From a plasmid: a stretch of 64,000 bases of DNA. The DNA is taken from sequence record NZ_CP064874.1, one strand, 5' to 3'. The position numbers were made by a program, and so were the translations under genes. The notes below the pieces were generated by a model, which saw only the letters and a program-made list of their open reading frames with translations, did no database searches and was not told where the DNA came from. Shown in pieces: positions 44,512-64,000 of the stretch (position 1 is the first letter of the stretch; each line of letters starts with the position of its first letter).

Positions 44512-44535
44512 CCCGAGTTGCGAAGATCGGTGAGG

Positions 44536-44778: not shown

Positions 44779-44814
44779 CGGCGGGGCCTTCTTGCGGCGG
44801 TTGAGCTGTCGATG

Positions 44815-46092: not shown

Positions 46093-46103
46093 CACGTTCG
46101 GCC

Positions 46104-46565: not shown

Positions 46566-46594
46566 GGGCGATCTCCTCAATCAATCAGAAAGTA

Positions 46595-46642
46595 GTGAAT
46601 GTGACATTCACTGATACTAGAGAGGTTGCAGCGTTCTCGCAA
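46595..46642 (-). promoter_or_regulatory. promoter plus palindromic operator, copy 5
   Basis: TTGCGA, 17 nt, TAGTAT, c, AGTGAATGTCACATTCACTA, GAGGAGA, ATG. Confidence 0.5.
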
Positions 46643-46826
46643 CCGTCGTCGTCGTCGTCGCCGAAAGTCGAGAGCGCTGCCTGTCGGCGGGCACGGTGCG
46701 CATGGGCTCATCACGAGGCGCTTCGATCTCGAAGCCGCACGCGCCGCAGCTGTGCAGTCCGACGCCATCGACGTCGTCGGATGGGATGTACATGGTGGTG
46801 GGCTCTTCGCACATCAGGCAGCGCAT
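46617..46826 (-). CDS. small zinc-ribbon protein
   Basis: MRCLMCEEPTTMYIPSDDVDGVGLHSCGACGF…. Confidence 0.4.
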   Translation of the reverse strand: MRCLMCEEPTTMYIPSDDVDGVGLHSCGACGFEIEAPRDEPMRTVPADRQRSRLSATTTTTVARTLQPL

Positions 46827-46846
46827 GGTGATCTCCGATCGTGTGG

Positions 46847-47310
46847 TCAGGCGGTAGCCGCCGGGGTGATCTGCTCGACGGTGGCTGAGTAGCCGCGGTG
46901 GGAACCCCAGGCGGCGGCGATGCGGTCGGCGACGTCGCGGTCTTCGCCGAGGTAGGGGCGGTATCGCTTGCCTCGCGGGTCGGTGATGACGACCTGGACG
47001 ACGCCGGAGGGCTCGCGCACGGTGACTCGGGCAGCAGGGATTGGGTGGGCGTGGACGCGGCCGGCGATGATGAAGGTCGGGTACAGATCGCGTGCGAGCT
47101 CGGGGGAGCGGAACACGTCGTGGACCCATGCCGTGATGGCGATCGCGCCGGCAGGACTGAACCCGATGAGGCGGGCGGGGAGCTGCTCGAGCCCGGAGCG
47201 GACGAAGTAGTGCTCGTCGACGAGTATCGGCGCCGGCGGATGCAGAGACCGCTCGTCGTGGGCGGGGTAGATCGTCAGGCTGGTGCGGCTGTTCATGAGG
47301 CGCTCGTTCA
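46847..47310 (-). CDS. hypothetical protein
   Basis: Start MNERLMNSRTSLTIYPAHDE. ATGA overlap with the upstream gene. Confidence 0.45.
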
Positions 47311-48078
47311 TGCGGTGCGGCGGATGCCTACGGCGATGATGTGCGCCTTGGTGGGACGGGAGTAGAAGCCGAAGCTGTCGTCGTCGTCCGAGGCGGAGAC
47401 GGTTGCGGTGAATGCGACGACGTCGCCGCGCGTCGCGGAGGAGATCTCGGAGGGCTTGGTGCCCCACACGCGCCAGCCTTCGCCCTGGACGAGGATCTTG
47501 ACGGTGATGCCCCACTGGGTGTCGGTGGTCTTGGTTGCGAGGATCTCACCCTGGATGAGGGTGCGTCCCGTGGGGACGGGGCGGCGCGCTGCCAGCTCGC
47601 GCTCGAGCTGCTCGAGCAGCTCGTGGGCAGTGCGGACCTCATCGGCGTCGAGGGTGCCGGTGGAGTCCTCGAGCGAGTCGAGGAGGTAGCCGATCTTCTC
47701 GCGCAGCGGGTTGCCCTCCCGGATGCTCAGATGAGCTTCGGTGAGCTGGTCGCGCAGGCCGGGGTGCTCGGCCTCGAAGGCAGCGCGACGGGCGGTGATC
47801 GCGCGCGTCGTGTCGATGTGCTCGGCGTGCGCCTTCGCGTGGGCGCGGGCGGTGGCGCGAGCGCTGCTGACGAGCCGGCTGCGAGTGCCGGTGCCGTGGC
47901 AGTCGAAGCAGATCGGGCGACCGTGGCCATCGGTGAAGTGGGTGGGCCCGGTGTACAGGCCGGTGCCGATGCACTTGCCGCAGGTGTCGGTGATCCGCTC
48001 GGAGCCCTTGCGGCCGGGGAAGGGGTCGACGTAGAAGTCGTGCCAGTCTGCCGGTGCGGTGGTGTCGATGCTGTCCAT
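47308..48078 (-). CDS. hypothetical protein with CxxC…CxxC zinc-binding N-terminus
   Basis: MDSIDTTAPADWHDFYVDPFPGRKGSERITDTCGKCIGTG…CFDCHGTG…. First gene of a long minus-strand operon. Confidence 0.5.
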   Translation of the reverse strand: MDSIDTTAPADWHDFYVDPFPGRKGSERITDTCGKCIGTGLYTGPTHFTDGHGRPICFDCHGTGTRSRLVSSARATARAHAKAHAEHIDTTRAITARRAAFEAEHPGLRDQLTEAHLSIREGNPLREKIGYLLDSLEDSTGTLDADEVRTAHELLEQLERELAARRPVPTGRTLIQGEILATKTTDTQWGITVKILVQGEGWRVWGTKPSEISSATRGDVVAFTATVSASDDDDSFGFYSRPTKAHIIAVGIRRTA

Positions 48079-48099
48079 GGGATCCTCCGATGCGTCTGT

Positions 48100-48179
48100 G
48101 GGTATAGGCCGCGGATCGTTCTCTTCGCGGACATGAAGGGGAAGGTGCGGGGGCGGCTATGTCACGGAGCCGCCCCCGC
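48100..48179 (-). promoter_or_regulatory. conserved intergenic module, copy 4 (with terminator-like hairpin)
   Basis: Hairpin GCGGGGGCGGCTCCGTGACATAGCCGCCCCCGC, CATGTCCGCGAAGAG, 12 nt, CCTATACCCA, 10 nt, GGAGG, ATG (48078). Confidence 0.5.
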
Positions 48180-48343
48180 GGCGGCGACCTGGTTGGGAGG
48201 ACGGCGGTCGCCGTGAGGGACGGAGCGAAGAGCGCGGCGAGCGCTCGTCAGGCTGCGGTGTGGCGCCTGTCCCTGGGAGGGGAACGGCGTTGCGCGGTTC
48301 CCCTGGCTGTGGGTCTGTGGGGTCTCCCTCTACTCAGTTAGTA

Positions 48344-48389
48344 GTGAATGTGACATTCACAGAGTAGGGGGTTTCTGCGTGCGGGTCAA
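48344..48389 (-). promoter_or_regulatory. promoter plus palindromic operator, copy 6 (about 260 nt upstream of the 48078 start)
   Basis: TTGACC, 17 nt, TACTCT, GTGAATGTCACATTCACTA. It is separated from the gene by the hairpin and module in 48100..48179. Confidence 0.5.
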
Positions 48390-48416
48390 GCGTCGATCTT
48401 GTAGGGATCTTTCTGA

Positions 48417-48468
48417 AATGTCCATTTCGCAGTTGAAATGTCCACGCGATGTCCATATGGACATTTCG
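48417..48468. repeat. 52-bp direct repeat A containing palindrome ATGTCCATATGGACAT and extra ATGTCCA half-sites
   Basis: aatgtccatttcgcagttgaaatgtccacgcgatgtccatatggacatttcgg. A near-identical copy is at 50093..50144. Confidence 0.5.
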
Positions 48469-48601
48469 GACGCCGGCCGACCGTCGCGATCATGTGGGCG
48501 GCGGTTTCACAGCGCCTCAGCTTCTCTGCTGGATCGCGGCTAGCGCCCGGGTATTGTCGGCACGATGCCGTTGCCGCGTATCCGTTGTTGAAGGGGTGAG
48601 T

Positions 48602-49856: not shown

Positions 49857-50092
49857 AGCGATCCCTACAGGTGGCCCTCAGAAGAAGTGTCCCACTCAGG
49901 CTCCTTCACGCGGAAGACCACGGCGCGCAACGCTTCGGGCGCAGAGCTGCGGATCAAGGCCGCCGGGTTACCGGCTCGCAAAACGTTGGAGGACTTCGAT
50001 TGGGATGCGCAGCGGAGGGCGCTCGCAGACCAGTTCTGACGACCGACAGCAGTTCATCGTCAGCCGGTTCCTACAGATGTCACGCTCCGAGT

Positions 50093-50144
50093 TGTCCATT
50101 TCGCAGGGGAGATGTCTACGCGATGTCCATATGGACCTTTCGGG
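50093..50144. repeat. 52-bp direct repeat B (copy of 48417..48468)
   Basis: gttgtccatttcgcaggggagatgtctacgcgatgtccatatggacctttcgg. Confidence 0.5.
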
Positions 50145-50222: not shown

Positions 50223-50507
50223 GTGTCCTCAGTCGTCCTTCCACTCACCGCTCAGCGGCATGCGGAACGTGTGAGCCGGGCACTTCACTGGATGGAGGAG
50301 CGTCTCGAGGAGCCGGTGACCCTCGCCGAGATCGCGGCGGTCGCTGGTCTTTCGCCGCATCACTTTCACCGCGTCTTCCGTGCGGTCGTGGGTGAGAACC
50401 CGAAAGCGCACCTGCGCCGGTTGCGGCTTGAGCGAGCGGTCTACCGACTCAAAGTCAGTACGGACACGGTGCTGCACATCGCGTTGGAATCGGCCGCGTC
50501 CGTTTGA
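50223..50507 (+). pseudogene. AraC/XylS-family HTH regulator fragment, truncated by IS256
   Basis: …VTLAEIAAVAGLSPHHFHRVFRAVVGENPKAHLRRLRLERAVYRL… The frame ends exactly at the IS256 terminus (50508). Confidence 0.5.
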
Positions 50508-51893
50508 GTGGTGGTCTTTCGCTTCGTTGCGATGATCAGCTGTCGTTAGTTTAGGCGGCGGTGATCTCGGGGAGTATCACCGCCTCGTCGATGGTGGGGG
50601 TGGTCGCGGTGAGCTCGGTCATGGAGGCTTCGGAGAAGTAGCGGCGGTCGGCGGCTTCCCATTCGTCGTGTTGCTCGACGAGGACGGAGCCGGCCAGGCG
50701 GAGCAGGGCGGCGTTGTTCGGGAACACGCCAACGACGTCGGTGCGGCGCTTGATCTCCCGATTGAGGCGTTCCAGCGGGTTCGTGGACCAGATCTGTCGC
50801 CAATGCCGGGCGGGGAACGCTTTGAACGCGAGGATGTCGTCACGGGCGTCGGTGAGCATCACGGCGGTCTTGGGGTGGACGCGCTCGATCATGCGCACGA
50901 CTTCGTCGAACTGGGCATCGATGTGCTCGGCGTCGGGTTGGGCGAAGATCGTGCGGATCACGCTGGCGACCATCTCCTGCCGGCCCTTCGGGAGGGCGGT
51001 CAGGACGTTGCGCATGAAGTGGACGCGGCAGCGCTGCCAGGCGGCGCCCTGCAACACGGTCGCTGCGGCCTTCTTCAGTCCGGCGTGGGCGTCGGAGATC
51101 ACCAGCTTCACCCCGCCCAGACCTCGTGTCTTCAACGAGCGCAGGAACTGCTTCCAGAACTCCTCGGTCTCGCTGTCTCCGACATCGAAGCCCAGCACGA
51201 CCCGCCGCCCGTCAGCGGCGACGCCGATCGCGACGACGACCGCCTGGGACACGACACGGTGGTCGATGCGGACCTTGCAGTAGGTCGCGTCGAGGAACAC
51301 GTAGGGGTAGGCGATGTCAGACAGCGAGCGGTCGCGGAACGATGCGACCTCGGCGTCGAGCCCTTGGCAGATGCGGGACACCTCGGACTTCGAGATGCCA
51401 GTGTCAGCGCCGAGCGCTTTGACGAGGTCATCGACCTTCCGGGTTGAGACGCCGTGGAGGTAGGCCTCCATCACGACCGCGAACAAGGCTTGGTCGACCC
51501 GGCGGCGCCGCTCCAGCAGCGACGGGAAGAACGACCCCTGCCGCAACTTCGGGATCCGCAACTCCAGATCCCCAGCCGTGGTCGACAGCACCCGCGGCCG
51601 GGAACCGTTGCGGGTAGTCGTGCGCTCGCTCGTGCGCTCGTAGGGGGCGGCGCCGATGAATGCGGCTGTCTCCGCGTCGATCAGCTCCTGGTAGAGCCGC
51701 TCGGTCGCGGCTCGGATGCGGTCGGTGGTGCCGGTGAGCTTCAGTTCCCCGAGCAGCTCGAGGAGGGCAGACTGGTCAAGAGCCATCGTGCGGTGTCGTC
51801 TTTCTGTGTGAGTTCTTGGTCGTTCTCACTGACCATCGCACGATGGCTCACCCCGTCGCGGTCACGACGCCGCGGGCCCGAAAGACCACCACC
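50508..51893 (-). mobile_element. IS256-family insertion sequence (about 1.39 kb)
   Basis: Terminal GTGGTGGTCTTTCG at 50508-50521 and its reverse complement at 51878-51892. Sub-terminal 12-bp-stem hairpin at 51788-51855. No clean 8-bp TSD. Confidence 0.7.
50551..51786 (-). CDS. IS256-family (Mutator-like) transposase
   Basis: 411 aa. …YPYVFLDATYCKVR…LVISDAHAGLKKA…CRVHFMRNVL… (DDE). Confidence 0.85.
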   Translation of the reverse strand: MALDQSALLELLGELKLTGTTDRIRAATERLYQELIDAETAAFIGAAPYERTSERTTTRNGSRPRVLSTTAGDLELRIPKLRQGSFFPSLLERRRRVDQALFAVVMEAYLHGVSTRKVDDLVKALGADTGISKSEVSRICQGLDAEVASFRDRSLSDIAYPYVFLDATYCKVRIDHRVVSQAVVVAIGVAADGRRVVLGFDVGDSETEEFWKQFLRSLKTRGLGGVKLVISDAHAGLKKAAATVLQGAAWQRCRVHFMRNVLTALPKGRQEMVASVIRTIFAQPDAEHIDAQFDEVVRMIERVHPKTAVMLTDARDDILAFKAFPARHWRQIWSTNPLERLNREIKRRTDVVGVFPNNAALLRLAGSVLVEQHDEWEAADRRYFSEASMTELTATTPTIDEAVILPEITAA

Positions 51894-52059
51894 CCGCGGG
51901 ACTCCAGGCCCGGTAGCCGGGGAACGACTGGGCCCGGCCGGTGAAACCATGCGCCCACTCGGTGAGATCGTCCAGCCGCCCCCTGTGCGTCAGGATGGGG
52001 TGAGACACCAGCACTGCTGACCTTCGCACTGCACGGGGCGAGAACGGACCAATACTGAG

Positions 52060-52464
52060 ATGACGATGACGGTTGCTGACGTCGGCACCGATGATGGGGC
52101 TATGGCTCCTCGTGCTGACCGGCCCAAGAGGCGGACGTTCACCGCCGAGTTCAAAGCGGCGATCCTGGCCGAGTACGACGCCGCGGACCGCTCTGGGCGT
52201 GGGGAGATCCTGCGCCGGGAGGGCCTGTACACCTCCCACATCATCGAGTGGCGCAAGGCCGCGGCCGCCGGCTCGCTGTCCGGGCTGGGCAGCAAGCCGC
52301 GGGACCGGCGCGAGCGGGAGCTGCAGGCGCTACGGGCCCGGGCGGAGAAGGCCGAGGCCGAGCTGGCCAAGACCAGGGCGGCGCTGGACCTGATGGGAAA
52401 AGCACACGCGCTCTTGGAGACGCTCTCCGAGAGCGCGGACAAGCCGCCGCGGTCGCCGCGGTGA
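52060..52464 (+). CDS. IS3-family transposase OrfA (HTH)
   Basis: …RRTFTAEFKAAILAEYDAADRSGRGEILRREGLYTSHIIEWRKA… with a leucine-zipper tail. A possible slippery site GGGAAAAG lies near 52410. Confidence 0.75.
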   Translation: MTMTVADVGTDDGAMAPRADRPKRRTFTAEFKAAILAEYDAADRSGRGEILRREGLYTSHIIEWRKAAAAGSLSGLGSKPRDRRERELQALRARAEKAEAELAKTRAALDLMGKAHALLETLSESADKPPRSPR

Positions 52465-53462
52465 TCAACCCGGCCGTCGACGGGCTGGCCGAGCACGTCG
52501 GCACCGCGGCTGCGTGCGCGCTGCTGGGTCGCTCCCGCGCCAGTCACTACCGGGCCAAGAACCCGCCACCGCCACGTCCACGGACACCGCGGCCGGCACC
52601 GGCGAACAAGCTGTCCGCCGCCGAGCGGGCCCACGTGCTGGCCGTGTTGACCAGCCAGCGGTTCGCGGACAAGTCGGTCGCCCAGGTCTGGGCCACGCTG
52701 CTGGACGAGGGCACCTACCTGTGCTCGATGTCCACGATGCACCGGATCCTGCGCGAGCACGACATGGCCGGGGAACGGCGCCGGCAGGCGAGCCACCCGC
52801 CCCGGACCCGGCCCGAGCTCGTCGCGACGGCGCCGGGGCAGGTGTGGAGTTGGGACATCACAAAGCTCAAGGGGCCGGAGCGGGGCGTGTACTACGACCT
52901 GTACGTCGTGCTCGACATCTTCTCCAGGTTCGTCGTGGGCTGGACCATCGCGGCCCGCGAGGACGCCGAGATCGCCAAGAACCTGCTCGAGCACGCCATG
53001 GGCATCCATGGCGTGCCGGAGGCGATCCACGCCGACCGCGGGACCTCGATGACCTCCAAACCGGTCGCTCAGCTGCTCGTCGACCTCGGGGTGGCCAGGT
53101 CGCACTCCCGCCCGCACGTGTCGAACGACAACCCTTACAGCGAGGCGGCGTTCAAGACGCTGAAGTACGCCCCGGTCTTCCCCGAGCGCTTCGGGTCCCT
53201 GGCCGACGCCGGCGCGTTCGCCGAGCAGTTCTTCGCCTACTACAACCACGAGCACCGCCACTGCGGGATCGGGCTGCACACCCCCGCCAGCGTCCACTTC
53301 GGCACCGCCGGGCAGGTCCGCGCCCAGCGCCAGGCCACCCTGGACGCGGCCTACGCCGCCCGTCCCGAGCGCTTCGGCCACCGCCGACCCCAGGCGCCCA
53401 AGCTGCCCGAGGCCGCCTGGATCAACCAGCCCTCACAGGAGGCCCTCATACAGACCGCCTGA
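52248..53462 (+). CDS. IS3-family transposase OrfB (DDE integrase; expressed as OrfAB)
   Basis: …WSWDITKLKGPERGVYYDLYVVLDIFSRFVVGWTIA…HADRGTSMTS…NPYSEAAFKTLKY…. Confidence 0.8.
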   Translation: MAQGRGRRLAVRAGQQAAGPARAGAAGATGPGGEGRGRAGQDQGGAGPDGKSTRALGDALRERGQAAAVAAVINPAVDGLAEHVGTAAACALLGRSRASHYRAKNPPPPRPRTPRPAPANKLSAAERAHVLAVLTSQRFADKSVAQVWATLLDEGTYLCSMSTMHRILREHDMAGERRRQASHPPRTRPELVATAPGQVWSWDITKLKGPERGVYYDLYVVLDIFSRFVVGWTIAAREDAEIAKNLLEHAMGIHGVPEAIHADRGTSMTSKPVAQLLVDLGVARSHSRPHVSNDNPYSEAAFKTLKYAPVFPERFGSLADAGAFAEQFFAYYNHEHRHCGIGLHTPASVHFGTAGQVRAQRQATLDAAYAARPERFGHRRPQAPKLPEAAWINQPSQEALIQTA

Positions 53463-53489
53463 CGGAATCTGTCTCACCCGCCTTGACAC

Positions 53490-53642
53490 TTTCCGGAAGA
53501 CCACGGCCTGCTCACTCGCACCGTCTACCCCGAGGTTCCCGCTCGCGTGGAGTACGAACTTACTGACCTCGGACACAGCGCAGCCGCCCCGTTGAAGCAT
53601 CTGCGCGACTGGGTTGAACACAACGTCGGAACCGACCAGTAG
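53490..53642 (+). pseudogene. HxlR-family regulator, C-terminal fragment abutting the IS3 right end
   Basis: HFPEDHGLLTRTVYPEVPARVEYELTDLGHSAAAPLKHLRDWVEHN is the characteristic HxlR wing and C-terminus. The N-terminal half is not found at the IS3 left flank. Confidence 0.5.
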
Positions 53643-54679
53643 CGACCCCCTCGGCGCTACATCGAGCCAGGAGTCCCGGCCTCCGCGTAATACCGCGTCA
53701 ACACAGACGAGGCGTCGCGGTCGCCGTCACCGGACACGACAGAGTTCAGCAGGTACCGGTACCCGTCACCGGTCGTCATCACCCTAATTGATAACGTCAC
53801 ACCTAGAAGGTGCGAAGTAACCGACGCGCGAGCACAGGAGCGCTTCTGTCATTTCGAAGGCGAGACTTCGCGCGATTGGGATTCGCCGGGCCATCCTTCT
53901 TCTCTTTCGTCGAACGTCACCGCAACACCGTGTCGCTGGGGTTCGTGAAATCTTCTTCCGGAAGCGAAACCCAGGTACTGCGCCATGAGGAACTCGCCGC
54001 AGCGATGCACAGGCGTTCGACAGTTCGGTCGCACGAACCGATCGTTTGTTAACGGACGGCACTGTACGTCGATCGAAAGTCGCGCCGACACCCCCTGCGA
54101 ATTCGCGTCGCGGGATAGTTTGCCAGGATCCGGCGATCAGCGTGGTGCGCATCAAGGAGGTGCGCAGCGGCCTCAGCACGAGGAGCCTGCCCGCGAGGCC
54201 GACCACCCCGCCCCTAGGAACGGTAGGAGTGCGACGTCGGGGCGAGCTGGGGGCCACCCCCCGAGACCGAAAGTAGCACCGCAGCGACGATAAGCGCCAC
54301 GCCAACCAGGGTGGTCGTCAGCTCCCCGACCAACGAACCGATCCATCCGCGTTCCTGGAGGTCTCGGAACATCCTTATGCTCAGCCCGAACGTTCCGTTC
54401 GAGCTGCGAACCGATCGTCTCGATGCGTCGTGGCAGACGCCTCAGCTGTCCACCGATGACCTGGAGTTGCACGCGGCCGTCGGCGAACATCTCCCTTGAG
54501 TCCATCGCCAGACGTATGAAATGAGGAGTTCGAGCAAGGGCCCGATCGACCAAGTCGTAGTCGGCAACGAGCTGGCACAGCGTTCCCTCGAGTGACACGA
54601 AGGAAACGACTGGCGTTCTCCTCCGCTGTTGGGGACGTCGGGTCGGCTGAAATAATGGCCGGGACGATACGGTGGCGAG

Positions 54680-55594
54680 TCAGAGCGCCGTGATCCACCG
54701 CGCGATCTCGTCAGCGATCTCGTCGCTATTGTCTTCGACCATCAGCGAGTGGCCGTTCCCAGCGAGAAGAGGCAGTTCGGACGACCAGAAGGTGACGGCG
54801 GCGCCCTGATCGGTGAGCCAGGCCACGATGTCCTGATCCAGCTGCGAGGGGTGGTCGGTATCGGCTCCACCCGTGAAGACGAGAATCGGCTTGTTCGTGA
54901 ACGCGTCGGTCGGCCCGATCCTCATTTGGCTCCCACCGATGTTCTGACGCTGATAAAGCATCCGGGCCGGGATCGGCCGAAGGGTGCGGCGGAACACCTC
55001 GATGCACTCGCGGGGGAACCGCCGGCTGGGTCCGATGGCCTTGTCGTTCACGAAGGCGCTTGTGGGTTCCCAGAAACCCATCTTCGGGATGGTCCAGTCG
55101 ATGGCCGCTCCACGGATGGAGACCTCCTGGTCGGACTCCCTCACGATCTCGGGCACCGCCTGTATATTTCCAGGCGGGCCCGGAGCGACGGCTACGAGCC
55201 CGTCGATGAGATCGCCATGCGTCTCTAGGAGGCGGAAGCCAATCGGACCTGCCATCGAGTGCACGACCAGCACGACGTTCCGGCCGAGACCAGAGAGGAA
55301 CACGCCCATCCCTCGGCACACGCTCTCATAGTCCAGCCGCGCAGACGCCGCACGATCATCGACGTGTTGGGCCGCCTCATAGGACAACCCCAGCCAGTCC
55401 ACCACCAGCACACCGTAGCCATGCGATACGAATCGTGCCGCCCAGCCCTGTCGGCCGTCGGGCGTCTCGAGATAGTACTCGTTCGAGGCACCACCCCCGT
55501 GCACGAGGACGATCCACCGAGCAGGCGCACCCGACGGCGCCAGTTCGGTGTACGAGATCGGCGCGACGTCGTCTGGGCGTGAAATCGAATCCAT
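54680..55594 (-). CDS. alpha/beta hydrolase
   Basis: Start MDSISRPDD. …IVLVHGGGAS… and nucleophile elbow VVHSMAGPIG. Confidence 0.7.
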   Translation of the reverse strand: MDSISRPDDVAPISYTELAPSGAPARWIVLVHGGGASNEYYLETPDGRQGWAARFVSHGYGVLVVDWLGLSYEAAQHVDDRAASARLDYESVCRGMGVFLSGLGRNVVLVVHSMAGPIGFRLLETHGDLIDGLVAVAPGPPGNIQAVPEIVRESDQEVSIRGAAIDWTIPKMGFWEPTSAFVNDKAIGPSRRFPRECIEVFRRTLRPIPARMLYQRQNIGGSQMRIGPTDAFTNKPILVFTGGADTDHPSQLDQDIVAWLTDQGAAVTFWSSELPLLAGNGHSLMVEDNSDEIADEIARWITAL

Positions 55595-55610
55595 AGCTTC
55601 CCCAGGCCTG

Positions 55611-56333
55611 TTAGGCAATGACGGCGTCGAGGGCCCGTGCGAGCCTCTCCGGATGCGTGAGCATCACCAAATGGCTTCCGTCGATCTCGATCGTGCGCGG
55701 ACTATCAAGCCGCCCGGCCGCGGCCTGGTAGATCTCAGCGGGAACGGCCTGGTCCTGAGCGAGGAACACATAACTTGACGGGATGCTGCTCGCCCAGAAC
55801 CGGTCGAGGCGGATCGGCTCATCGGACCAGCCTGCCGGCGCTGGGACGAGCCTCGGCTCGAGCGCGGCGAGCTGCTGCTGCTCGAACGGGGACATGTCCT
55901 GCATAGACGCGGCCCAGAGCTCAGGCGGCATGACGATGGTGTTGTCGTCGGACTGACTCGCAAGCGCCTTCGTCGCTGCGACCAACGGATCGGGGAGCAC
56001 GTCGTTAATGGTCTCGCCGTCGCGCAGCACCCAGGCGTCGACGAAGACGACCCGGCCGATGCGCTCGGGCATCGCCTCAGCGACGAGTTGGATGAGCGGA
56101 CCTCCGCCGCTATGACCGACGAGCACGATGTCGAGCTGGGTGAGCTCTCTTACCTGATCGATCAGATCGCGCGCCATCATGCTCATCGTGACGCCGGAGC
56201 GGTCCACGTCACCGTCTTCGAGACCGCGCAGCGTCGGCGCGATCACCTCGTGCCCCATTCTGCGCAATTCGTCGGCGACGCCGTCCCACACCCAGCCGCC
56301 TACCCATCCGCCGTGCACCAGTACGATCTGCAT
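55611..56333 (-). CDS. alpha/beta hydrolase
   Basis: MQIVLVHGGWVGGWVWDGVADEL…LVGHSGGGPLI (GxSxG). Confidence 0.75.
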   Translation of the reverse strand: MQIVLVHGGWVGGWVWDGVADELRRMGHEVIAPTLRGLEDGDVDRSGVTMSMMARDLIDQVRELTQLDIVLVGHSGGGPLIQLVAEAMPERIGRVVFVDAWVLRDGETINDVLPDPLVAATKALASQSDDNTIVMPPELWAASMQDMSPFEQQQLAALEPRLVPAPAGWSDEPIRLDRFWASSIPSSYVFLAQDQAVPAEIYQAAAGRLDSPRTIEIDGSHLVMLTHPERLARALDAVIA

Positions 56334-56494
56334 TGATCATCCTCTTCGCATATTTATCTGCTGAGCAGAACTTGTTCCTAACTAGAAGACACAATAGCTT
56401 GCGCGGCGCCAACAGTCCAGCATGGCTCGAGCTCTCTTCAGAACGCGCCGAACGACCCCTGCACCAGGTCGCAGGGGAAAGAGACGACGAGCCT

Positions 56495-56900
56495 TCAGGA
56501 GGTCAGGTCGGCCAGACGTACGGCTGCCTCATCGAGGAGTGCGACGAGGGTCTTCACCTTGCGGGGAGGCAAGCGGAACACCGGGGCAGATGCGTTGATC
56601 GCCAACCGCAGCCCGCTCGCCGAGGGAACGGCCACGGCCACCGAGGCCACGCCCTCCTCGCTCTCCTCCCGGTTCGTTGCATAGCCCTGCTTCGCGACAA
56701 GATCCAGTTGTGCGAGGAGCTCGGTCTTGGTACGGATCGACTGCGGAGTCACCTGTGAGAGTTGCTCGTCGGGGTAGAGACGGTCCAATTGTTCTCGCGG
56801 GAGCTGCGCCAGGAGAACCTTTCCCGTGGAGGTGCAATGGGCCGGCATCTCCTTGCCCAACCGTGAAGCGACTCGCACCGCCGTCGTCGGTTCCGCGACC
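56495..56900 (-). pseudogene. IclR-family regulator, C-terminal effector-domain fragment
   Basis: …RVASRLGKEMPAHCTSTGKVLLAQLPREQLDRLYPDEQLSQVTPQSIRTKTELLAQLDLVAKQGYATNREESEEGVASVAVAV… Upstream of about 56900 the frame is non-homologous. Confidence 0.5.
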
Positions 56901-57275
56901 GGGGTCGTGCCCGACGTGAACCAGATCCAGCTCAGCCCCGACATCGCCCGTACCGTTCCTCGACGCGCGCACGAGGTGCTCGGTATCGTGACCGAGAGCT
57001 GGAGCCCGCTCGGCCGCGGGCCCGAGCTGCGGGAGAACCCGACGATCGTGCAGATCGCGGCGGACGTCGGACGAACGGCGGCACAGGTGGTGCTCCGCTG
57101 GCACGTGCAGCAGGGCCTCGTGCCGGTGCCGAGATCGTCAGACCCCAAACGCCTGGTCGAGAACCTCTCGGTCTTCGACTTCCGCCTTAGCACCGACCAG
57201 ATGGCCACGCTTGCGTCCCTCGACAACGGCGAAGCCGCCGCGCGGGACTCTGACCTGCCCGAGAACGGTCATTAG
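56901..57275 (+). pseudogene. aldo/keto reductase, C-terminal fragment
   Basis: …VPDVNQIQLSP…ESWSPLGRG…IVQIAADVGRTAAQVVLRWHVQQGLVPVPRSSDPKRLVENLSVFDFRLSTDQMATL… It shares its breakpoint with the IclR fragment on the opposite strand. Confidence 0.5.
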
Positions 57276-57312
57276 TCCACCAAGAACACCAAAATCGTCA
57301 CCGATCTGGTAA

Positions 57313-57504
<192 letters not shown>

Positions 57505-57659
57505 TGATGGCTCGAACGTAGGCGCGATCTGCCTTGCTCGCCTCACCTTCGGCTCGCTCGACAGCCGCGTCCAAACCATCGCGAAGTCGCGTGCACTGCA
57601 GATGGCGGCGAGGGAGAGAGTAAGTTCTGCAGTGTGCCCGATCGGGAACAGGGGGTGGG

Positions 57660-58114
57660 CTTTAGTACCCCTGCCCGAATTCGCGAAGTCTGGGCCACAG
57701 ATCGCCGCCGACGACGCCGAAGACCCCTACGTCCGCCAGCATGCCGCCGAAGCCCTGCTTGAGATCAACGAAGACCGGAAAGTCAACGGCCGCTACCTCG
57801 CCGTCAAGACCCGACAGAACCTCGCCCGCCTCACCGACTTCGCCGAACACACCCGTCGGTTTCCCTGCCTCTTCCGCCTCGATCAACGCCACCTGTGCAC
57901 CCCTATCAGCGGGAGCGAGGGTCTCGGGAAGCTTCTCAAGCCGACGGGCAACTCGCTCGGCAGTGCTTGCGAATCGGCGGTACGGACGACCCAACTGTTC
58001 GCTCGTGTTGGGGTCCTGGCCGTGCCCCATGAGACGGCGGAGCTGCTCCTCGCTGACCTCACCACCGGGTTCGACGGCGCCAGAAATGTACGCGAGACCC
58101 GATCCGAGCCATGA
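57660..58114 (+). CDS. hypothetical protein or fragment (HEAT-repeat-like)
   Basis: Good GC3 from about 57660 (…DPYVRQHAAEALLEINEDRKVNGRYLAVKTRQNLARL…). Lower-quality sequence upstream suggests a junction. Confidence 0.3.
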
Positions 58115-58131
58115 GCCCGGCGGCGTGCTGT

Positions 58132-58449
58132 TCAGTCGTTCAGCCGGTGGAGCCAGTAGCCGGGTTCGCGGCGCTCGTGGGCGTAGGCGAGGATCAGGAT
58201 CGTGTCCGGCTCCACCGTGTAGACGATGCGGTACGGGTATCCGCGAACGGCCTTGCTGCGGATCACGGTGCCATCGTCAGCGGTCGTGAATGGTGGGGCG
58301 GCGTTCGGCCATTGGTCGAGGTCTTTCCGGGCTTGCCTTGCTCGGTCGATGAGCGCAAGGCCGATCCCTGGCTCCTGGTCTTCGTACCAGCGCACGGTGG
58401 CGTCGAACTCCGCGACGGCCTCGGGGTGCTCTCGCTGGGCCAAGGTCAT
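58132..58449 (-). CDS. type II toxin, RelE/ParE family
   Basis: 105 aa. …GYPYRIVYTVEPDTILILAYAHERREPGYW…. Overlaps the antitoxin gene by 4 bp. Confidence 0.6.
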   Translation of the reverse strand: MTLAQREHPEAVAEFDATVRWYEDQEPGIGLALIDRARQARKDLDQWPNAAPPFTTADDGTVIRSKAVRGYPYRIVYTVEPDTILILAYAHERREPGYWLHRLND

Positions 58450-58712
58450 GCGGTGAGCAAGGCGCGCAAACGCTCGTAGTGCTCGTCGGCATCCACCAGA
58501 TCGACCGCACCCTCACGCACCTCGGCCAGTCGCCGGGTAGCCTCGGCACGCCAGGCTGCATCGACCTCGCTCTCGTCGTCTGCATCATGGAGGCTTTCGA
58601 GCAGGGCGTTAGCGACGACCGCGCGCTGATCGGCGTCGAGCGCGAGGCCGTCTCGGATCAGAGTTGCGGTGTCGGGTGTCATGTATTCAAGTGTACGTCG
58701 AACGGCCGACAA
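58446..58712 (-). CDS. antitoxin (addiction-module component)
   Basis: 88 aa, acidic protein directly upstream of the ParE-like gene and overlapping it. Confidence 0.55.
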   Translation of the reverse strand: MSAVRRTLEYMTPDTATLIRDGLALDADQRAVVANALLESLHDADDESEVDAAWRAEATRRLAEVREGAVDLVDADEHYERLRALLTA

Positions 58713-58785
58713 TCGCGCTGGGCGTCTGTGGCTCGGGTTGCGGGGCTGCTGTGAACGTCACGCCGACGCGACGTGCTGCTGATGC

Positions 58786-61700
58786 TCATAGGCCGCGTGC
58801 TGGCCCGTCATGTCGCGGGTCGTTGCGCCGCGGGTCGCGTTCGGTCGGCTCGCGGAGTTGCCGTTCGCGTTCGGCGAGTGCTTGCTGCCTTGCTTCGTGC
58901 TCGGCGCGGGTGGTTTCGATCCGTGCGGCGGCGTCGCGGATCGGTAGCGCGCGGAGGTAGTCGGCCTCGGCTCGGAGCGCGGTGGCTTGCTGGTGCGCCT
59001 GTCCTGCTTGCTGTGCTGGGTTCGGCAGTCGCATCCCGACCCGGTGGCGCATCACCGCCTGCGGCCCGTACTCGCTGACCAGCAACGCCCGGCGTTCCTG
59101 CTCGTGCCGCTGCCGCAACTCGTCACGGTCGGCTCGCGCGGCCTCGACGTGCTGGGCGGCGTCGATCACGCGGGGATCGGCCTCGGCGCGACGCTCGGCC
59201 TGTCGTGCCGCCCACTCGGGCAGGGTGTCGGTGGTGCGGGGTGGTTCGCCCCATGTTTCGCGCACCCGTGCCCGAACCGTCCGGGTGTGCTCGCTCGTCT
59301 GGCGGTGCTCCGCGCGGGCCTTGCGCCTGCCGAGCCTGCCGACGGTGGCGAGTCGGCTGCTTGCGGCGGCCTCGCGCTCGACAGCATCGAGATAGGTGGT
59401 GCCGTCTGCCTCGGCCTGCACCGTCAACGGTTCCGCGATTTCGGCACGGATGCGCGCCGCCTCGTCCTCGGCGTGGCGGAGCACGTCGGCGTGCTCGTCG
59501 TCCTCGGTCTTGTGTGTTGCGCGCTGGGCGTCGAACCTGGCAGCGGTCTGCTCCCAGCGTTCCGCCGCACGTTCGGCTCGTTCGGCTTCGGCGGTGAGGC
59601 GGGCGAGTTCTTCGGTGATGAGCTGCACGGGGCCATCGCTGACGAGGCCTTGCACGGCGTCGATGGCTTGGGCGGTGGCGTGGTCGAGGCCACGGTCTGC
59701 CGGGTCGCGTTCCATCGCCTCAACGAACCGCGCCCGCGCATCCGCCATATCAGCGGCGACGACGTGGAGTTGGTTCTGTTGGCGGCCTCTCGTCATGCCG
59801 ACGTAGACGCCTGCCGCGCTCGTCGCCTCCGACAAGGCCGTGTGGGAGGCATCGACGGTTGCGCCTTGGACGCCGTAGGCGGTCGCGGCATACGACAGGT
59901 GCGCCCACTCGCTCACGTACTCGGCGGGGAGGGCGACGGTGCGGCTGTGCTTGCCTCCGCCGCTGACTTCGCGGGCGTAGACGCTGCCCTCGTCGGTCAC
60001 ATGCTGCACGATCCATTGCTGCCGGTTTGCCACGCCGAGGTCGCTGCTGTTCTTCCGGGTCTGGATCAGGTCGCCAGCGCCGATGCTCAGCCCGTCGCTG
60101 CCGGTCGTCGTCATAGTGTCGTCGACCTCGCCGCGCTCGACCCGCCCGGCGCGGATGTGCTCGTTCAGCTCGGTGGCCTCGTCGTTGGTGGCGACGGTGA
60201 TCGCTTCGCCGTCGTGGGCGTGGGCGGTGATGTGCTCGCGGGCCGCTTCCTCGTCGGCATGCAAGGTCACGAGGCCCATCGTGGCGAGTCGGTCGAACAC
60301 GTCGCCGGGGTGCTCCCGGTCACGCATGACCAACGTCAACGCCGCATACTCGGCATCGGTGAACCTGTGGAGTTCGGTCATGTCGTAGGTACGGCCACGA
60401 ATCTGGGCGGCCATGTCGAGCACCCCGCCGCGCCCGACCGCCGGGAGCTGCGCCCGGTCGCCCACGAACGCGACCGACGCGCCTGCCTCGGCGGTGACGG
60501 TCAGCAGAGCGAGGGCGGTGTCCTGGTCGAGCATCCCCGCTTCGTCCACGATCACCCGCTCACCCCGCGACAGCACGGCGTCGTTTGGTGGGCCGGTGTA
60601 GATGTTCCCGGTTGCAGGGTCGGTGTCGCCGGGTGCGAGGCGTGTCCATACGCCGTCCTCGTTCCACCGCCACCCATGCGCATACACGAGCGCCGCGACG
60701 GAGGTTGCGGGCACGCCGAGTTCTTCGTGGGCGACCTGCGCCGCACGCAACGTCGGCGCAACCACCCGCGAGGATCGCCCGTGCTCGGCTGCAACCTCGA
60801 TGGCGACGCCGAGCATGGTGGTCTTGCCTGCGCCCGCCGCGCCCTCGACAATCACGAGCGGGTTGGTCGAGGCGACGGCAGCGGCGGCCACGGTCTGCCC
60901 GGTGTCGAGTCCGGCGGCTTGCGCAGCGTCGGTCACGTCGGGGTGCTTCGGCTCCCGTTCCGGCGTCGCGGCGGTGAGTTGGTCGCGGAGTGCGGTCTCG
61001 GCGGCGACGACGCCAAGGCTGGTGAGGTGGGCGACGTGCTCGGGTTGCACCATGCCCGGCGGCAGCACCGAGAAACAATCCGAGGCGGCGAGTCCGGTGG
61101 CGAGGTCGATGAACTCGCGCAACTCCGCCGGGGTCGCTTGCACGCCTGCCTCGGTGGTGATGCGGGTGACGTGCTCTCGCACGGTGTGCGGTGCCCAGGT
61201 CGATGCAGCCGCCGCGCAGCGATCCAGCGCACGACTGGCGACCTGTTGCACGCTGAGGTCATCCAGCGATGCCGGCGCAACGGTGTCGGGGTGCTGCAAG
61301 CTCTCGGGGTGGTAGCCGGCGTCTCGGAGTTCCTGCTGCCACCACTGCTCGTTCTTCAAGTCCGCCGGTTTCTTGCCGGGCCGCTGGAACGCCCACGCCG
61401 CGTCCTGCATCCGAGCGGTCAACACCGGGCCGGGCGTCTCGCCGGGATGCTTCGCTTGCCACTCGGCCTCCATGCGTTCCAGGTTGCGTCTGATCTGCGC
61501 CGACCGCTTCGACATGACGGCGTTGAACGGCTCCAACTCCACAACCTCACCGCTTACGGGGTCGAGGGTCAGGCCATGCTCGGAGAGCGTGGCGGCGAGC
61601 TGGGGGTGCGCGGCGATCACCGCCGTACCGAGAGCACGGATCGCGCCCTGCTGCTGGAACAACGCCGCCGTGGTCAGCGCCCGCCACTTCCCGCCCGCCC

Positions 61701-62241
61701 ACACCCTCGTGCCAATCTGGAAATGGATATGCCGGTGCGGATCACCCGCACGACTCGTCTTGTGCGTGATCGCGACGGTCTGCATGTGCTCGACCGGCAG
61801 CACCTCCTGCGCGCCGCGCGGCCCCGCCAACGTGACCGAATGCTGACCAAGGAAGTGCTGAATCTCCCGCGCCGCATCCCGCTGCGTCGCGTCCAACGCC
61901 TCGGACACGTCCGGGTGGAGTGCGGCGGCGACCGACAGGCTCTTCGGCGCGTTGATCGTCATCTCCGCGAACAACGGCGACCCCCGACGCACCTTGCCCG
62001 GCTTGCGCGGGGTACCCATCGACTCCCCGGTGTCCGGGTTCACCCAATCGACCCAGGCTTCGTACTCATCCGCCGACAGCGACCGAGCAGCGGTGACCTC
62101 GCCGGTCGCGTCGATCACGGCGTACTCGGCCACGGCCTGGTCTGCGCCGAGGTAGTACTCGTCAGCGCGGGAGCGGTCGGCCTCGACATAGGCGCGCGCG
62201 GCAGCACCGCTGCCGTGGAACAGCTTCACTCCACCCTTCAC
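58786..62241 (-). CDS. MobF-family conjugative relaxase-helicase (TrwC/TraA-like)
   Basis: Relaxase motif HKTSRAGDPHRHIHFQIG. Helicase Walker A VIVEGAAGAGKTTML. Start taken at a GTG (VKGGVKLFHGSGAAARAY) preceded by GGGAGG. The ORF-track start at 62586 is a likely over-extension. Confidence 0.85.
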   Translation of the reverse strand: MKGGVKLFHGSGAAARAYVEADRSRADEYYLGADQAVAEYAVIDATGEVTAARSLSADEYEAWVDWVNPDTGESMGTPRKPGKVRRGSPLFAEMTINAPKSLSVAAALHPDVSEALDATQRDAAREIQHFLGQHSVTLAGPRGAQEVLPVEHMQTVAITHKTSRAGDPHRHIHFQIGTRVWAGGKWRALTTAALFQQQGAIRALGTAVIAAHPQLAATLSEHGLTLDPVSGEVVELEPFNAVMSKRSAQIRRNLERMEAEWQAKHPGETPGPVLTARMQDAAWAFQRPGKKPADLKNEQWWQQELRDAGYHPESLQHPDTVAPASLDDLSVQQVASRALDRCAAAASTWAPHTVREHVTRITTEAGVQATPAELREFIDLATGLAASDCFSVLPPGMVQPEHVAHLTSLGVVAAETALRDQLTAATPEREPKHPDVTDAAQAAGLDTGQTVAAAAVASTNPLVIVEGAAGAGKTTMLGVAIEVAAEHGRSSRVVAPTLRAAQVAHEELGVPATSVAALVYAHGWRWNEDGVWTRLAPGDTDPATGNIYTGPPNDAVLSRGERVIVDEAGMLDQDTALALLTVTAEAGASVAFVGDRAQLPAVGRGGVLDMAAQIRGRTYDMTELHRFTDAEYAALTLVMRDREHPGDVFDRLATMGLVTLHADEEAAREHITAHAHDGEAITVATNDEATELNEHIRAGRVERGEVDDTMTTTGSDGLSIGAGDLIQTRKNSSDLGVANRQQWIVQHVTDEGSVYAREVSGGGKHSRTVALPAEYVSEWAHLSYAATAYGVQGATVDASHTALSEATSAAGVYVGMTRGRQQNQLHVVAADMADARARFVEAMERDPADRGLDHATAQAIDAVQGLVSDGPVQLITEELARLTAEAERAERAAERWEQTAARFDAQRATHKTEDDEHADVLRHAEDEAARIRAEIAEPLTVQAEADGTTYLDAVEREAAASSRLATVGRLGRRKARAEHRQTSEHTRTVRARVRETWGEPPRTTDTLPEWAARQAERRAEADPRVIDAAQHVEAARADRDELRQRHEQERRALLVSEYGPQAVMRHRVGMRLPNPAQQAGQAHQQATALRAEADYLRALPIRDAAARIETTRAEHEARQQALAERERQLREPTERDPRRNDPRHDGPARGL

Positions 62242-62468
62242 TCTGGCCTCCCTCACGAGTCGTCTCGTGAGAGAGGTGCGCACTACGGCCCCGCCGTAAA
62301 ATACGTGCCTCACTGAGATAGGGGGCAGATGACTGATGGAGCCGAGCGTCAGCGCGAGAGCGTCGCACAGAGTGTCGCTGGCAAGAGTTGGCGTCACAAA
62401 GTTCGAGGGAACTTTCGGAGTTCGGTTCGATGAAGTGACTAGTCTTCTCGGCGAACTTCGTGACCTGA

Positions 62469-63053
62469 TTACTGCCCGATGAGTCTTCGGGCAGCGGTGA
62501 CGACGGAGGCACGGCGGCGTGCGTGTTCGGCGTCGCTCTCGGCTCCGGTGATCATGCGGGCGACCTGCGGTACCGCTGACCACCATCCGGCGAGTGAGAG
62601 CACGAGGAACATCAGGTGGTCGGCGTCGAGGTCGCTCGTTACTGTGCCCTTGGCCTGTCCGTCGGTCATGGCGGCGACTTTGTATCCGTAGTATTCGCGC
62701 CGCTCGGCCTCGTCGGGTACTTCGGTGTCGAAGACGAGCCCTTCCCAGCGCATGAGCCTGCCGAGTTCGGGGTGCTCGCGGTGGTAGTCGTAGACGCGCC
62801 CGGCGTAGTCGCCCACGTCCTCGGTTGCGAATGATTCGACGGGCACGTCGCGGGCTACCTTCGCCAGTTCCTCGCGCAGTACGGTGGCGAAAAGTCTGTC
62901 CTTGCCCCCGAAGTGCGTGTAGACGCGCTCCTTGTTCACCCCGGCGGCCTTGGCGATGCGCTCGATGGTCGTGCCGTGCGGCCCGTGCGCGGCGAACTCG
63001 GCCACCGCCGCGTCGAGGATGCGGCGCTTCCTGCCCTCAACATCCCAGCCCAT
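62469..63053 (-). CDS. TetR-family transcriptional regulator
   Basis: Start MGWDVEGRKRRILDAAVAEFAAHGPHGTTIERIAKAAGVNKERVYTHF (HTH). Confidence 0.75.
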   Translation of the reverse strand: MGWDVEGRKRRILDAAVAEFAAHGPHGTTIERIAKAAGVNKERVYTHFGGKDRLFATVLREELAKVARDVPVESFATEDVGDYAGRVYDYHREHPELGRLMRWEGLVFDTEVPDEAERREYYGYKVAAMTDGQAKGTVTSDLDADHLMFLVLSLAGWWSAVPQVARMITGAESDAEHARRRASVVTAARRLIGQ

Positions 63054-63085
63054 CGTTCCCACCTCCCGTCTCGTGCGGTAAACCC

Positions 63086-63230
63086 AACGCTCACGTTGCG
63101 TCTTCGCGCGTCCGGACGGTCCGAGGATCGCGGTGCCGGCACGTTCGACATGCATGACCTGTAGGTCGGAGTATCCGCCCCAGTTCAGGACCTGGACCTT
63201 CTCGATGCGGAACTGCCCATTGATTAGCAT
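63086..63230 (-). pseudogene. N-terminal fragment of an SMC/RecF-like ATPase, JetC(MksF)-like, fused in frame to the TetR ORF
   Basis: MLINGQFRIEKVQVLNWGGYSDLQVMHVERAGTAILGPSGRAKTQ resembles the JetC N-terminus and P-loop approach. Homology ends near 63090. The ATG overlaps the stop of the upstream fragment (TGATG). Confidence 0.3.
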
Positions 63231-63232
63231 CA

Positions 63233-63664
63233 GGACTCCTCGTCAAGGAGCTGGGCTGAGTTTTCGGTGCCATTCCCGTCATTTGCGGTGGCGCCTGCCC
63301 CGAGCCGGTATGCCGCTTCCAGCCGCGTCAGTTCATCGACACCGACAAGAGGTACCACGACTGGCGAGATCGTGTAGAGGTAGTCGGCGTCAGGGTCCTG
63401 GTTGAGCAGCCGCAGATCCTGCAGCTGCCGGATGGCGGCGGTGACGCGACGATCGAACTTCGCCTGGTCGCCGTCGTCATCCTGGCGGTAGGCGCTAAGG
63501 AACTCGTCGATCTGAGCCCGGGTGACCACGACGAGCTCGTCCTGGGGGTCGGCGTGGGCGCACTCCTGGCAGAGAAAGATGAGCAGGAACGAGGCGTCGC
63601 GACTGAGCGGGCGATCTTTGCGGAGGATGCGGGGAGTGTCCTCCTCCATGATCTGCCGTTTGAA
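63233..63664 (-). pseudogene. DUF4194/JetB(MksE)-like gene, C-terminal 144 codons, 5' end cut by ISL3 copy 2
   Basis: …DELVVVTRAQIDEFLSAYRQDDDGDQAKFDRRVTAAIRQLQDLRLLNQDPDADYLYTISPVVVPLVGVDELTRLEAAYRLG… is acidic and winged-helix-like. The frame only continues upstream through ISL3 antisense sequence. Confidence 0.3.
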
Positions 63665-64000
63665 GGCTCTTCGGACATTCGGTGGGGGTGAGGCTTGCCG
63701 GGTGGGGTTCGGCGGGTAGGGGTCGAGGTCCCCGAGGATCAGTAGCGCTAACTGTCTGATCTTCACGAGGACCTCGACGTGCTTCACCCTACTTCGGGGT
63801 GCGCTTCCGCGCGCTCTGCCGCTGATCCGTGTTCCCGCTGCGACGTTCTGCTGGGTCTTCCCGATGTCCATGTCGAGCGCGTCGACCGTCGCGACGGGCT
63901 GCTGGTGGTGACGGTCTCGACGCCAGCGGCGCCGACCGGCTGCCCCTCGTGTGGGGTCGTCGCGACCGGCCGCGGACGCCGTCGACGGGTGCTTCATGAT
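63665..64000 (+). mobile_element. ISL3-family insertion sequence copy 2 (left 336 bp; inverted relative to copy 1; continues past window end)
   Basis: The IR GGCTCTTCGGACATTCGGTGGGGGT starts at 63665. 63665..64000 is the reverse complement of about 7619..7954. Confidence 0.8.
63778..64000 (+). CDS. ISL3 transposase, 5' part (copy 2)
   Basis: GTG start followed by LHPTSGCASARSAADPCSRCDVLLGLPDVHVERVDRRDGLLVVTVSTPAAPTGCPSCGVV…. Confidence 0.8.

Follow-up and report, generated by a model that had tools for sequence, protein, structure and literature searches.

A very probable remnant of a type I Wadjet (jetABCD) operon between a plasmid tetR-mobF module and an ISL3-family insertion sequence

Type I Wadjet (JetABCD, also named MksBEFG or EptABCD) is an SMC-like anti-plasmid nuclease system. 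Its components are the kleisin-like JetA (DUF3375), the MukE-like JetB (DUF4194; approximately 220 aa), the SMC-like ATPase JetC (approximately 1,100 aa, with a Walker A motif, coiled coil, hinge, and Walker B motif), and the Toprim nuclease JetD (DUF3322 and JetD_C). JetABCD cuts circular DNA of up to about 100 kb, and this activity needs ATP and the JetC ATPase (10.1101/2022.10.04.510915). In Corynebacterium, the nuclease subunit is reported to be the executing part of the system (PMC10123090). In Clostridium cellulovorans, either spontaneous loss or clean deletion of jetABCD improved the uptake of conjugative plasmids approximately 100,000-fold (PMC12287153).

The locus described here resembles type I Wadjet in that JetB and the JetC N-terminus are encoded in their native order, with the native TGATG overlap and with 100% identity to a complete operon. 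It differs in being a pseudogene remnant, in which jetD is absent and no jetA is present within the window (the whole 64,000-nucleotide stretch that was analyzed). Like the C. cellulovorans case (PMC12287153), it is a Wadjet operon lost through a spontaneous genomic lesion, with plasmid DNA kept afterward. However, that case concerns a chromosomal deletion in a laboratory isolate with measured phenotypes, whereas the present one consists of a joint with plasmid DNA and an insertion sequence (IS) in an actinobacterium and is known from sequence alone. The locus belongs to a known kind of system and is a case of ordinary defense-gene decay. What the analysis adds is the anatomy of the two lesions, the order in which they occurred, the origin of the fragments in a conserved Microbacterium locus beside a Tn7-like module, and the joint between chromosome-type and plasmid-type DNA.

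The jetB and jetC fragments and their intact counterparts

The jetB remnant (63230..63664, minus strand) comprises codons 78 to 221 of 221 and the stop codon, and its translation reads FKRQIMEEDTPRIL...IRQLQDLRLLNQDPDADYLYTISPVV...LLDEES*. It matches the PADLOC JetB profile with an E value of 1.5e-35 over profile positions 113 to 249 of 328, and it scores 58 bits against Pfam DUF4194 (cut-off, 32.7). The stop codon of jetB and the ATG of jetC overlap as TGATG, with base 63230 common to both genes, and the frame after this overlap opens with MLINGQFRIEKVQVLNWGGYSDLQVMHVERAGTAILGPSGR, the start of jetC (41 to 44 codons). The jetC remnant itself (63107..63230, minus strand) consists of codons 1 to 41 plus one base and ends inside Walker A. 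The first 44 residues of the jetC frame match PADLOC JetC (E value of 1e-11; profile positions 13 to 52 of 1112), and the jetC start scores 30 bits against Pfam AAA_29 (cut-off, 27). An earlier, sequence-only reading of this DNA had described an acidic JetB-like C-terminus followed, across the TGATG overlap, by a JetC-like start, and the sequence does read in this way. Its tentative assignment of the fragments to JetB (DUF4194) and JetC was borne out by the PADLOC and Pfam profile searches, in which the two translations came out as JetB/DUF4194 and JetC and not as members of unrelated families. JetC homology, which it had seen to stop about 45 codons in, was found to end at codon 41/42; at this point, Walker A reads GPSGR followed by GKS in intact JetC and GPSGRAKT in the window.

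At the protein level, the jetB fragment is 100% identical to JetB of Microbacterium sp. 5K110 (tblastn). At the DNA level, the 558 nt from 63107 to 63664 contain no mismatch to either this genome (L008) or a sister contig (L003), and they are a 100% match to the jetB-jetC region of intact jetABCD operons in Microbacterium genomes. The sequence-only reading had looked to relatives for an intact jetABCD, and the genome that is 100% identical in DNA to the window fragments, that of Microbacterium sp. 5K110, holds a complete operon encoding JetA (485 aa), JetB (221 aa), JetC (1136 aa), and JetD (401 aa). These four proteins match the PADLOC type I Wadjet profiles with E values of 1e-144, 9e-59, 5e-203, and 6e-83, respectively. 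Since the 558 nt are identical to operons whose products match PADLOC JetA1, JetB1, JetC1, and JetD1, the fragments can be taken, on this identity, to descend from a bona fide jetABCD operon. A scan with the L003 JetB, covering one genome per species, found identical JetB proteins at four loci, three of them in named Microbacterium and one in a metagenome-assembled genome labelled Planctomycetota.

JetB is not full length in the window, as the ISL3 element cuts off its first 77 codons and leaves 144 of 221. JetC retains 41 of 1136 codons. In tblastn searches of the whole window, the intact L008 JetC found no match beyond residues 1 to 44, and the 401-aa JetD of L008 found no match. The window contains no jetA, as the IS extends past its end. 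The jetA-like gene that the sequence-only reading had sought upstream is present in L003, where it lies directly upstream of jetB and encodes a 485-aa protein with PF11855 (DUF3375), and jetA is likewise directly upstream of jetB in all intact relatives. As only 41 codons of jetC and the final two thirds of jetB are left and JetD is missing altogether, it is a safe inference that the locus cannot work. With the SMC-like motor (JetC) and the Toprim nuclease (JetD) both gone, there would be no extrusion or cutting of circular DNA. The loss of Wadjet would lift a barrier to smaller circular plasmids, which would be a plausible selective reason for the decay. That the carrier strain or element would have no working Wadjet at this locus is relevant when its defense systems are annotated but carries little weight alone.

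In the assembly collection, 481 blocks list the exact JetA of the locus and 377 list the exact JetD. The genomic context was read in the 23 longest JetA contigs and the 22 longest JetD contigs, and all 45 of these long contigs have a single conserved context around the operon. On the jetA side, the order is TauE, AhpC, LysE, ABATE, a Peptidase_S66 fragment, a 464-aa gene, PIN_12, and an 855-aa AAA_13 ATPase, which is the PADLOC candidate PDC-S06, followed by jetABCD. On the jetD side, the operon is followed by two small genes and by the tniQ, tniB, tnsB-like, and tnsA-like genes of a Tn7-like module; the left end of the Tn7-like element was not found by short inverted-repeat and motif searches. 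One of the contigs with this conserved context is a complete chromosome of 3.52 Mb (CP063814.1), and the same context makes up the 10 kb of jet-side DNA in L003. No plasmid in PLSDB matched the 579-nt jetB-jetC remnant, even at low stringency. We consider it very probable that the window fragments come from a very recently shared Microbacterium defense island and are now a nonfunctional remnant of type I Wadjet (jetABCD).

The jetC-tetR joint and the ISL3-family insertion

jetC is broken after codon 41, in Walker A, and joined to a position 55 nt upstream of tetR. The Microbacterium jet loci match the window as far as 63107, and the match to the Rhodococcus plasmid pNAPH begins at 63108. In a three-way alignment, the window reads ...GGACCGTCCGGACGCG up to the break and CGAAGACGCAACG... 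after it, intact jetC reads ...GGACCGTCCGGACGCG and GCAAGTCCACC..., and pNAPH reads ...GTAGTAGGCTAAC and CGCGAAGACGCAACG.... The joint (63107..63108, minus strand) is the dinucleotide CG, which is common to jetC and the tetR leader. An overlap this small points to illegitimate recombination rather than homologous or site-specific recombination, and the partners would have been plasmid-type DNA and a chromosome-type stretch that contained the jet island. The 253-aa fusion product encoded across the joint is identical in three other assemblies (L003, L004, and L005; exact-protein look-up). As the joint recurs in four independent assemblies, an assembly artefact at 63107/63108 is unlikely. The reciprocal joint, with the plasmid side attached to jetC from codon 42 on, was sought in two ways, and both negatives are uninformative: jetD is always preceded by full jetC in the 22 longest exact-JetD contigs, and a gapped pattern for the predicted reciprocal junction found none in the JGI metagenomes.

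The plasmid DNA joined to jetC is a module of tetR, mobF, antitoxin, and RelE/ParE genes. The mobF relaxase gene (58786..62241, minus strand) encodes 1151 aa, is assigned to the MobF family in the annotation of pNAPH and pLW1, matches Pfam TrwC and AAA_30, and carries one substitution, T350A, that is unique to the window. DNA identity over the module, starting with the toxin/antitoxin genes and taking in mobF and tetR, is 99.9 to 100% both to pNAPH (NZ_CP063451.1), as far as 55 nt upstream of tetR, and to pLW1 (NZ_CP079226.1), as far as 25 nt upstream of tetR. The pNAPH tetR gene is separated from a divergent MFS transporter gene by a 174-bp spacer that includes an 11-bp perfect palindrome, CAAATCCAACG-N4-CGTTGGATTTG, located 72 to 97 nt upstream of tetR (L001 8726..8751). 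In contrast, this spacer is cut in the window and joined to jetC, and the palindrome, which falls outside the leader that was kept, is lost.

The rest of the window is also related to plasmids. The region 53496..63108 matches Rhodococcus and Glutamicibacter plasmids; 50492..53495 consists of an IS256-family and an IS3-family element and is identical to a Microbacterium sediminis plasmid; and the Microbacterium plasmid pYJNG is collinear, at 86 to 92% identity, with 3..2542 and 33883..48399, the shared genes being those for DUF3560, a DNA methyltransferase, an HNH endonuclease, ArdC, and DUF3846. The carrier had been called a conjugative element. The MobF relaxase and the Microbacterium plasmid backbone agree in part with that description, but no mating-pore genes were present among the open reading frames (ORFs) scanned, a subset of those in the window.

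At its other end, the remnant adjoins ISL3 copy 2 (63665..64000, plus strand) at 63664/63665, between jetB codons 77 and 78. The window contains only the first 336 nt of this copy, with the terminal inverted repeat running from 63665, and its transposase start maps to 63779 and reads rightwards past the window end. The 336 nt are a 100% inverted copy of 7619..7954, the end of ISL3 copy 1 (6497..7954, minus strand), which is complete (1458 bp) and has the 8-bp duplication CGATAACG on both sides. The transposase of copy 1 matches DDE_Tnp_ISL3 (Pfam E value of 2.7e-53) and HTH_Tnp_ISL3, and this, together with the 25-nt terminal inverted repeats GGCTCTTCGGACATTCGGTGGGGGT and the 8-bp duplication at copy 1, places the element in the ISL3 family. 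With a DDE_Tnp_ISL3 transposase containing an HTH and a zinc ribbon, 25-nt repeats, 8-bp duplications, and a length of 1458 bp, there is nothing unusual about it as an ISL3-family IS. Public assemblies contain this 1458-bp IS at many other sites.

The uninterrupted jetB of L003 reads ...GGCGTCGCA TTCAAACG GCAGATC..., with the octamer TTCAAACG present once, exactly at the IS boundary, and the window reads (IS end)...GAAGAGCC TTCAAACG GCAGATC... at the same place. In the window, the octamer (63657..63664, minus strand) adjoins the IS end and is presumably one copy of an 8-bp target-site duplication, whose other copy would lie past the window end. It fits the target preference at other copies of the IS (CGATAACG, AGTTAACG, and ACTTAACG), and matched 8-bp duplications of similar sequence occur at copy 1 and two other IS copies (CGATAACG and AGTTAACG). 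The sequence-only reading held that ISL3 copy 2 had replaced the 5' part of jetB. The ISL3 boundary at 63664/63665 is as it described. However, because L003 has the octamer once and exactly at the boundary, it is more likely that the 5' part of jetB was parted from the remnant by IS insertion than that it was replaced, and jetB codons 1 to 77 and jetA would then lie beyond the IS. Flanking octamers are unmatched in 6 of 9 other public copies of this IS, indicating that IS-mediated rearrangement or metagenome assembly chimerism is common around it; the matched duplication at copy 1 argues against an inversion between the two IS copies. Searches for the exact IS/jetB junction in genome, metagenome, and viral contigs, for the jetC/tetR junction in viral contigs, and for exact copies of the jetB fragment, the ISL3 transposase, an abhydrolase, and the MobF T350A variant yielded no source sequence extending past the window end.

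The order of the two lesions is given by L003, a 107-kb contig from sample SRR14903965, whose identity to window 53496..63667 is 99.83%. This contig shares the jetC-tetR joint but has an uninterrupted 221-aa jetB, a 485-aa jetA, and no IS, indicating that the joint is older than the IS insertion.

Origin of the joint and other lesions in the operon

The operon has also been broken elsewhere. In CP063814.1 (L024), an IS whose transposase is of the DDE_Tnp_1 type interrupts jetB at a site equivalent to window 63494..63499. In L007, L025, and L027, jetC is cut at approximately codon 706 by an IS3-family element, the same one as at window 51980..53495, and is called as a 726-aa ORF. Together with the jetC-tetR joint and the ISL3 insertion, these are four independent lesions in an otherwise identical operon. 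The operon is intact in 18 of the 23 longest JetA contigs and disrupted in 5, several of the disrupted ones coming from related marine metagenome samples and perhaps not being independent. This pattern is compatible with selection against Wadjet in plasmid-holding lineages, given small numbers and no neutral baseline, and four lesions among several hundred assemblies could also be neutral IS activity. With at least four ways of breaking the same operon, once with plasmid DNA, the locus may offer a small natural data set on possible selection against Wadjet by plasmid carriage, an effect to which the laboratory findings in Clostridium point.

Because every intact copy retrieved has one Tn7-like-adjacent context, one of them on a complete chromosome, and because the remnant has no PLSDB match, the remnant appears to be a joint between chromosome-type and plasmid-type DNA. 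Three histories could account for such a joint: a plasmid may have integrated into jetC, a plasmid may have captured chromosomal DNA, or the island may have moved onto a plasmid and then undergone deletion. We put forward only tentatively the possibility that the joint was left by a plasmid, or a large part of one, recombining directly into the motor gene of the host's chromosomal anti-plasmid system, and that the four lesions reflect repeated selection for Wadjet loss in plasmid-rich Microbacterium.

It is possible, if doubtful, that the position of the joint is not random and that the zone beside the 11-bp palindrome is a recurrent site of breakage or recombination, with jetC as one of several partners. 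Between the palindrome and tetR, three independent junctions lie within 46 nt of one another, at distances from the palindrome of 2 nt (L046), 17 nt (the window and L003), and 47 nt (pLW1). However, these are three events only, their positions differ, and no single nick or crossover site is defined by them; moreover, selection for an intact tetR-mobF alone would cluster junctions just outside the gene. Such a site might be an operator prone to form hairpins, or one related to a relaxase or a recombinase. Since the three positions differ, joining by a relaxase at one nick does not fit, and the palindrome zone as an oriT nick region was set aside and kept only as a weak rival. The idea that the plasmid module lands repeatedly in defense genes was also dropped, as the product of a second tetR-leader fusion (P0138; 366 aa) has no Pfam or PADLOC match.

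An unlikely alternative is that the Wadjet system was the plasmid's own: a Tn7-like element with jetABCD would have moved onto the plasmid, and a later deletion would have run from jetC codon 42 to the tetR leader. That a plasmid's own system was switched off was the view of the sequence-only reading, in which the inactivation of a plasmid-restriction system on a plasmid or ICE-like element would make biological sense. Such a deletion would take jetC, jetD, and the transposition genes and would have been selected as the system attacked the carrier or co-resident plasmids. The window is otherwise plasmid-like over 63 kb, the intact locus adjoins Tn7-like tnsA, tnsB-like, tniB, and tniQ genes, defense cargo is known on Tn7-like elements (PMC8649781), and one deletion with 2-nt microhomology would yield the observed joint. 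However, the 579-nt remnant matches 0 PLSDB plasmids, 45 of 45 long contigs have the same context, including the complete chromosome, and the 10 kb of jet-side DNA in L003 contain host-like genes (ABATE/zf-CGNR and the Peptidase_S66 fragment) and are identical to the conserved context. The inactivation stands, but the attribution of the system to the plasmid itself is made less likely by the chromosomal copy and by the lack of a PLSDB match. A joint between chromosome-type and plasmid-type DNA remains the reading that we adopt.

The tetR gene and the 253-aa reading frame

tetR (62469..63053, minus strand) encodes a 194-aa regulator, and matches to TetR_N (E value of 4.5e-16) and TetR_C_21 (E value of 1.1e-33) place it in the TetR family. 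It is WP_024476687.1 in the annotation of pNAPH and pLW1, where its start equals window 63053. The leader that was kept (63054..63108, minus strand) is 55 nt long, includes a GGGAGG ribosome-binding site, and is 100% identical to pNAPH. As the sequence-only reading had noted, the JetC frame runs on into TetR; the resulting open 253-aa ORF (62469..63230, minus strand) in the ORF list comprises JetC residues 1 to 41, an 18-residue translated leader, and TetR. This frame exists because the tetR leader has no stop codon in it, and it appears to be an accidental read-through. At another junction, a different truncated gene reads through the same tetR leader in the same frame (P0143; 553 aa), indicating that the leader is simply devoid of stop codons.

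It is very improbable that the JetC(1-41)-TetR chimera is a functional new protein, such as a TetR regulator whose N-terminus has changed and whose translation is coupled to that of jetB. The frame is open, uses the native jetC ATG in the TGATG overlap, and is identical in four assemblies, but those four copies are virtually identical in DNA and so reflect recent common descent rather than conservation. In addition, tetR retains a start codon and a ribosome-binding site of its own, in-frame read-through of this leader also occurs at the separate junction of P0143, and the IS in the window severs jetB from its promoter.

Translation of tetR probably still begins at its native start codon, but the gene now lacks the upstream palindrome, which is its likely operator. 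If the locus has any residual effects, these would plausibly be on tetR, which is without this likely operator and part of its promoter region. In the form of the locus seen in L003, the jet promoter could drive tetR transcription; in the window, the IS lies between that promoter and tetR. A sigma-70 scan gave no promoters in 62200..64000, but it covers actinobacterial promoters poorly and so says nothing about expression. For annotation, the 253-aa ORF is best recorded as a pseudogene joint plus an ordinary tetR gene.

Spread of the jet locus and its Tn7-like neighbor

The Microbacterium jet locus and the neighboring catabolic module were found in several hundred to more than 1,000 unrelated assemblies, among them short contigs labeled Salmonella, Klebsiella, or E. 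coli as well as Tara ocean metagenomes. This spread over unrelated assemblies suggests that a widespread contaminant-type strain is the source of these occurrences. A Tn7-like transposition module (L037, 13308..19775), consisting of tniQ, tniB, a 716-aa tnsB-like gene, and a tnsA-like gene, was located downstream of jetABCD in every intact copy. Because the module lies 3' of every intact operon, jetABCD, a PDC-S06-like ATPase gene, and a PIN_12 gene are probably cargo of the Tn7-like module. Short inverted-repeat and motif searches did not find the ends of the Tn7-like element beside jetABCD.

Lesions of the jet operon and junctions of the tetR-mobF module

The tetR-mobF module, whose tetR leader is fused to the jetC remnant in the window, has three different upstream junctions, all of them no more than 46 nt from an 11-bp perfect palindrome. 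The junction or palindrome zone lies at 8709..8751 in the Rhodococcus plasmid pNAPH (L001), at 8679 in L002, and at 5474..5489 in L046. At one junction, a truncated 366-aa gene with no family assigned is in frame with the tetR leader, and the resulting 553-aa fusion ORF is present on five contigs.

An IS3-family element occupies 51980..53495 of the window, and a 100% identical copy breaks jetC at approximately codon 706 in three further assemblies that carry this jet operon (L007, 12784..12861; L025, 14238..15753). The 3.52-Mb chromosome CP063814.1 has an IS in jetB, at the site that corresponds to window 63494..63499. L005, a short contig carrying the jetC-tetR fusion, ends at window 63499, exactly at this site. 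The L005 sample may contain both lesions, the jetC-tetR fusion and the IS in jetB, or the position of the contig end may be a coincidence.

Two 58-nt direct repeats, at 48412..48469 and 50086..50143 of the window, are 86% identical and are spaced 1,674 nt apart. Each contains the palindrome ATGTCCATATGGACAT, and the pair may represent sites of protein binding or the ends of an element.

The 31-kb insert and its defense genes

Compared to the Microbacterium plasmid pYJNG, the window contains approximately 31 kb of extra sequence at 2543..33882, which lies inside the gene for a class I SAM-dependent DNA methyltransferase. Found in this insert are an IS5-like fragment, ISL3 copy 1, AbiU, Hma, an MMPL unit, and a group of three large ORFs that overlap. 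The MMPL transporter gene (23440..25995) lies between two perfect inverted repeats of 960 nt each (22375..23334 and 26713..27672), which are weakly similar to IS5-family elements, and this arrangement looks like a composite transposon. The three overlapping ORFs, of 495, 606, and 701 aa, are on the minus strand at 28493..33899, and only the first has a Pfam match, to a tyrosine recombinase (Phage_integrase). These three ORFs also occur together beside an IS256 element in L031.

AbiU and Hma form a small defense island in the window, with all of their genes on the minus strand. The AbiU/AIPR abortive-infection gene (8288..9835; PADLOC AbiU E value, 1.5e-168) is directly adjoined by ISL3 copy 1. 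The Hma system at 10865..20412 appears complete, with the HmaA helicase (16924..20412; PADLOC, 1,296 bits), the HmaB methylase, and the HmaC ATPase, which has an N-terminal HEPN domain (10865..14302; E value, 1e-267). HmaB is divided between the ORFs 15809..16927 and 14253..15842, which overlap but are not in the same reading frame, indicating a frameshift or a sequencing error. Adjoining the Hma system, at 20864..21530, is a 75%-identical relative of the Metallophos-like gene that lies two places 3' of jetD in the intact locus of Microbacterium sp. 5K110 (L008, 15958..16616).
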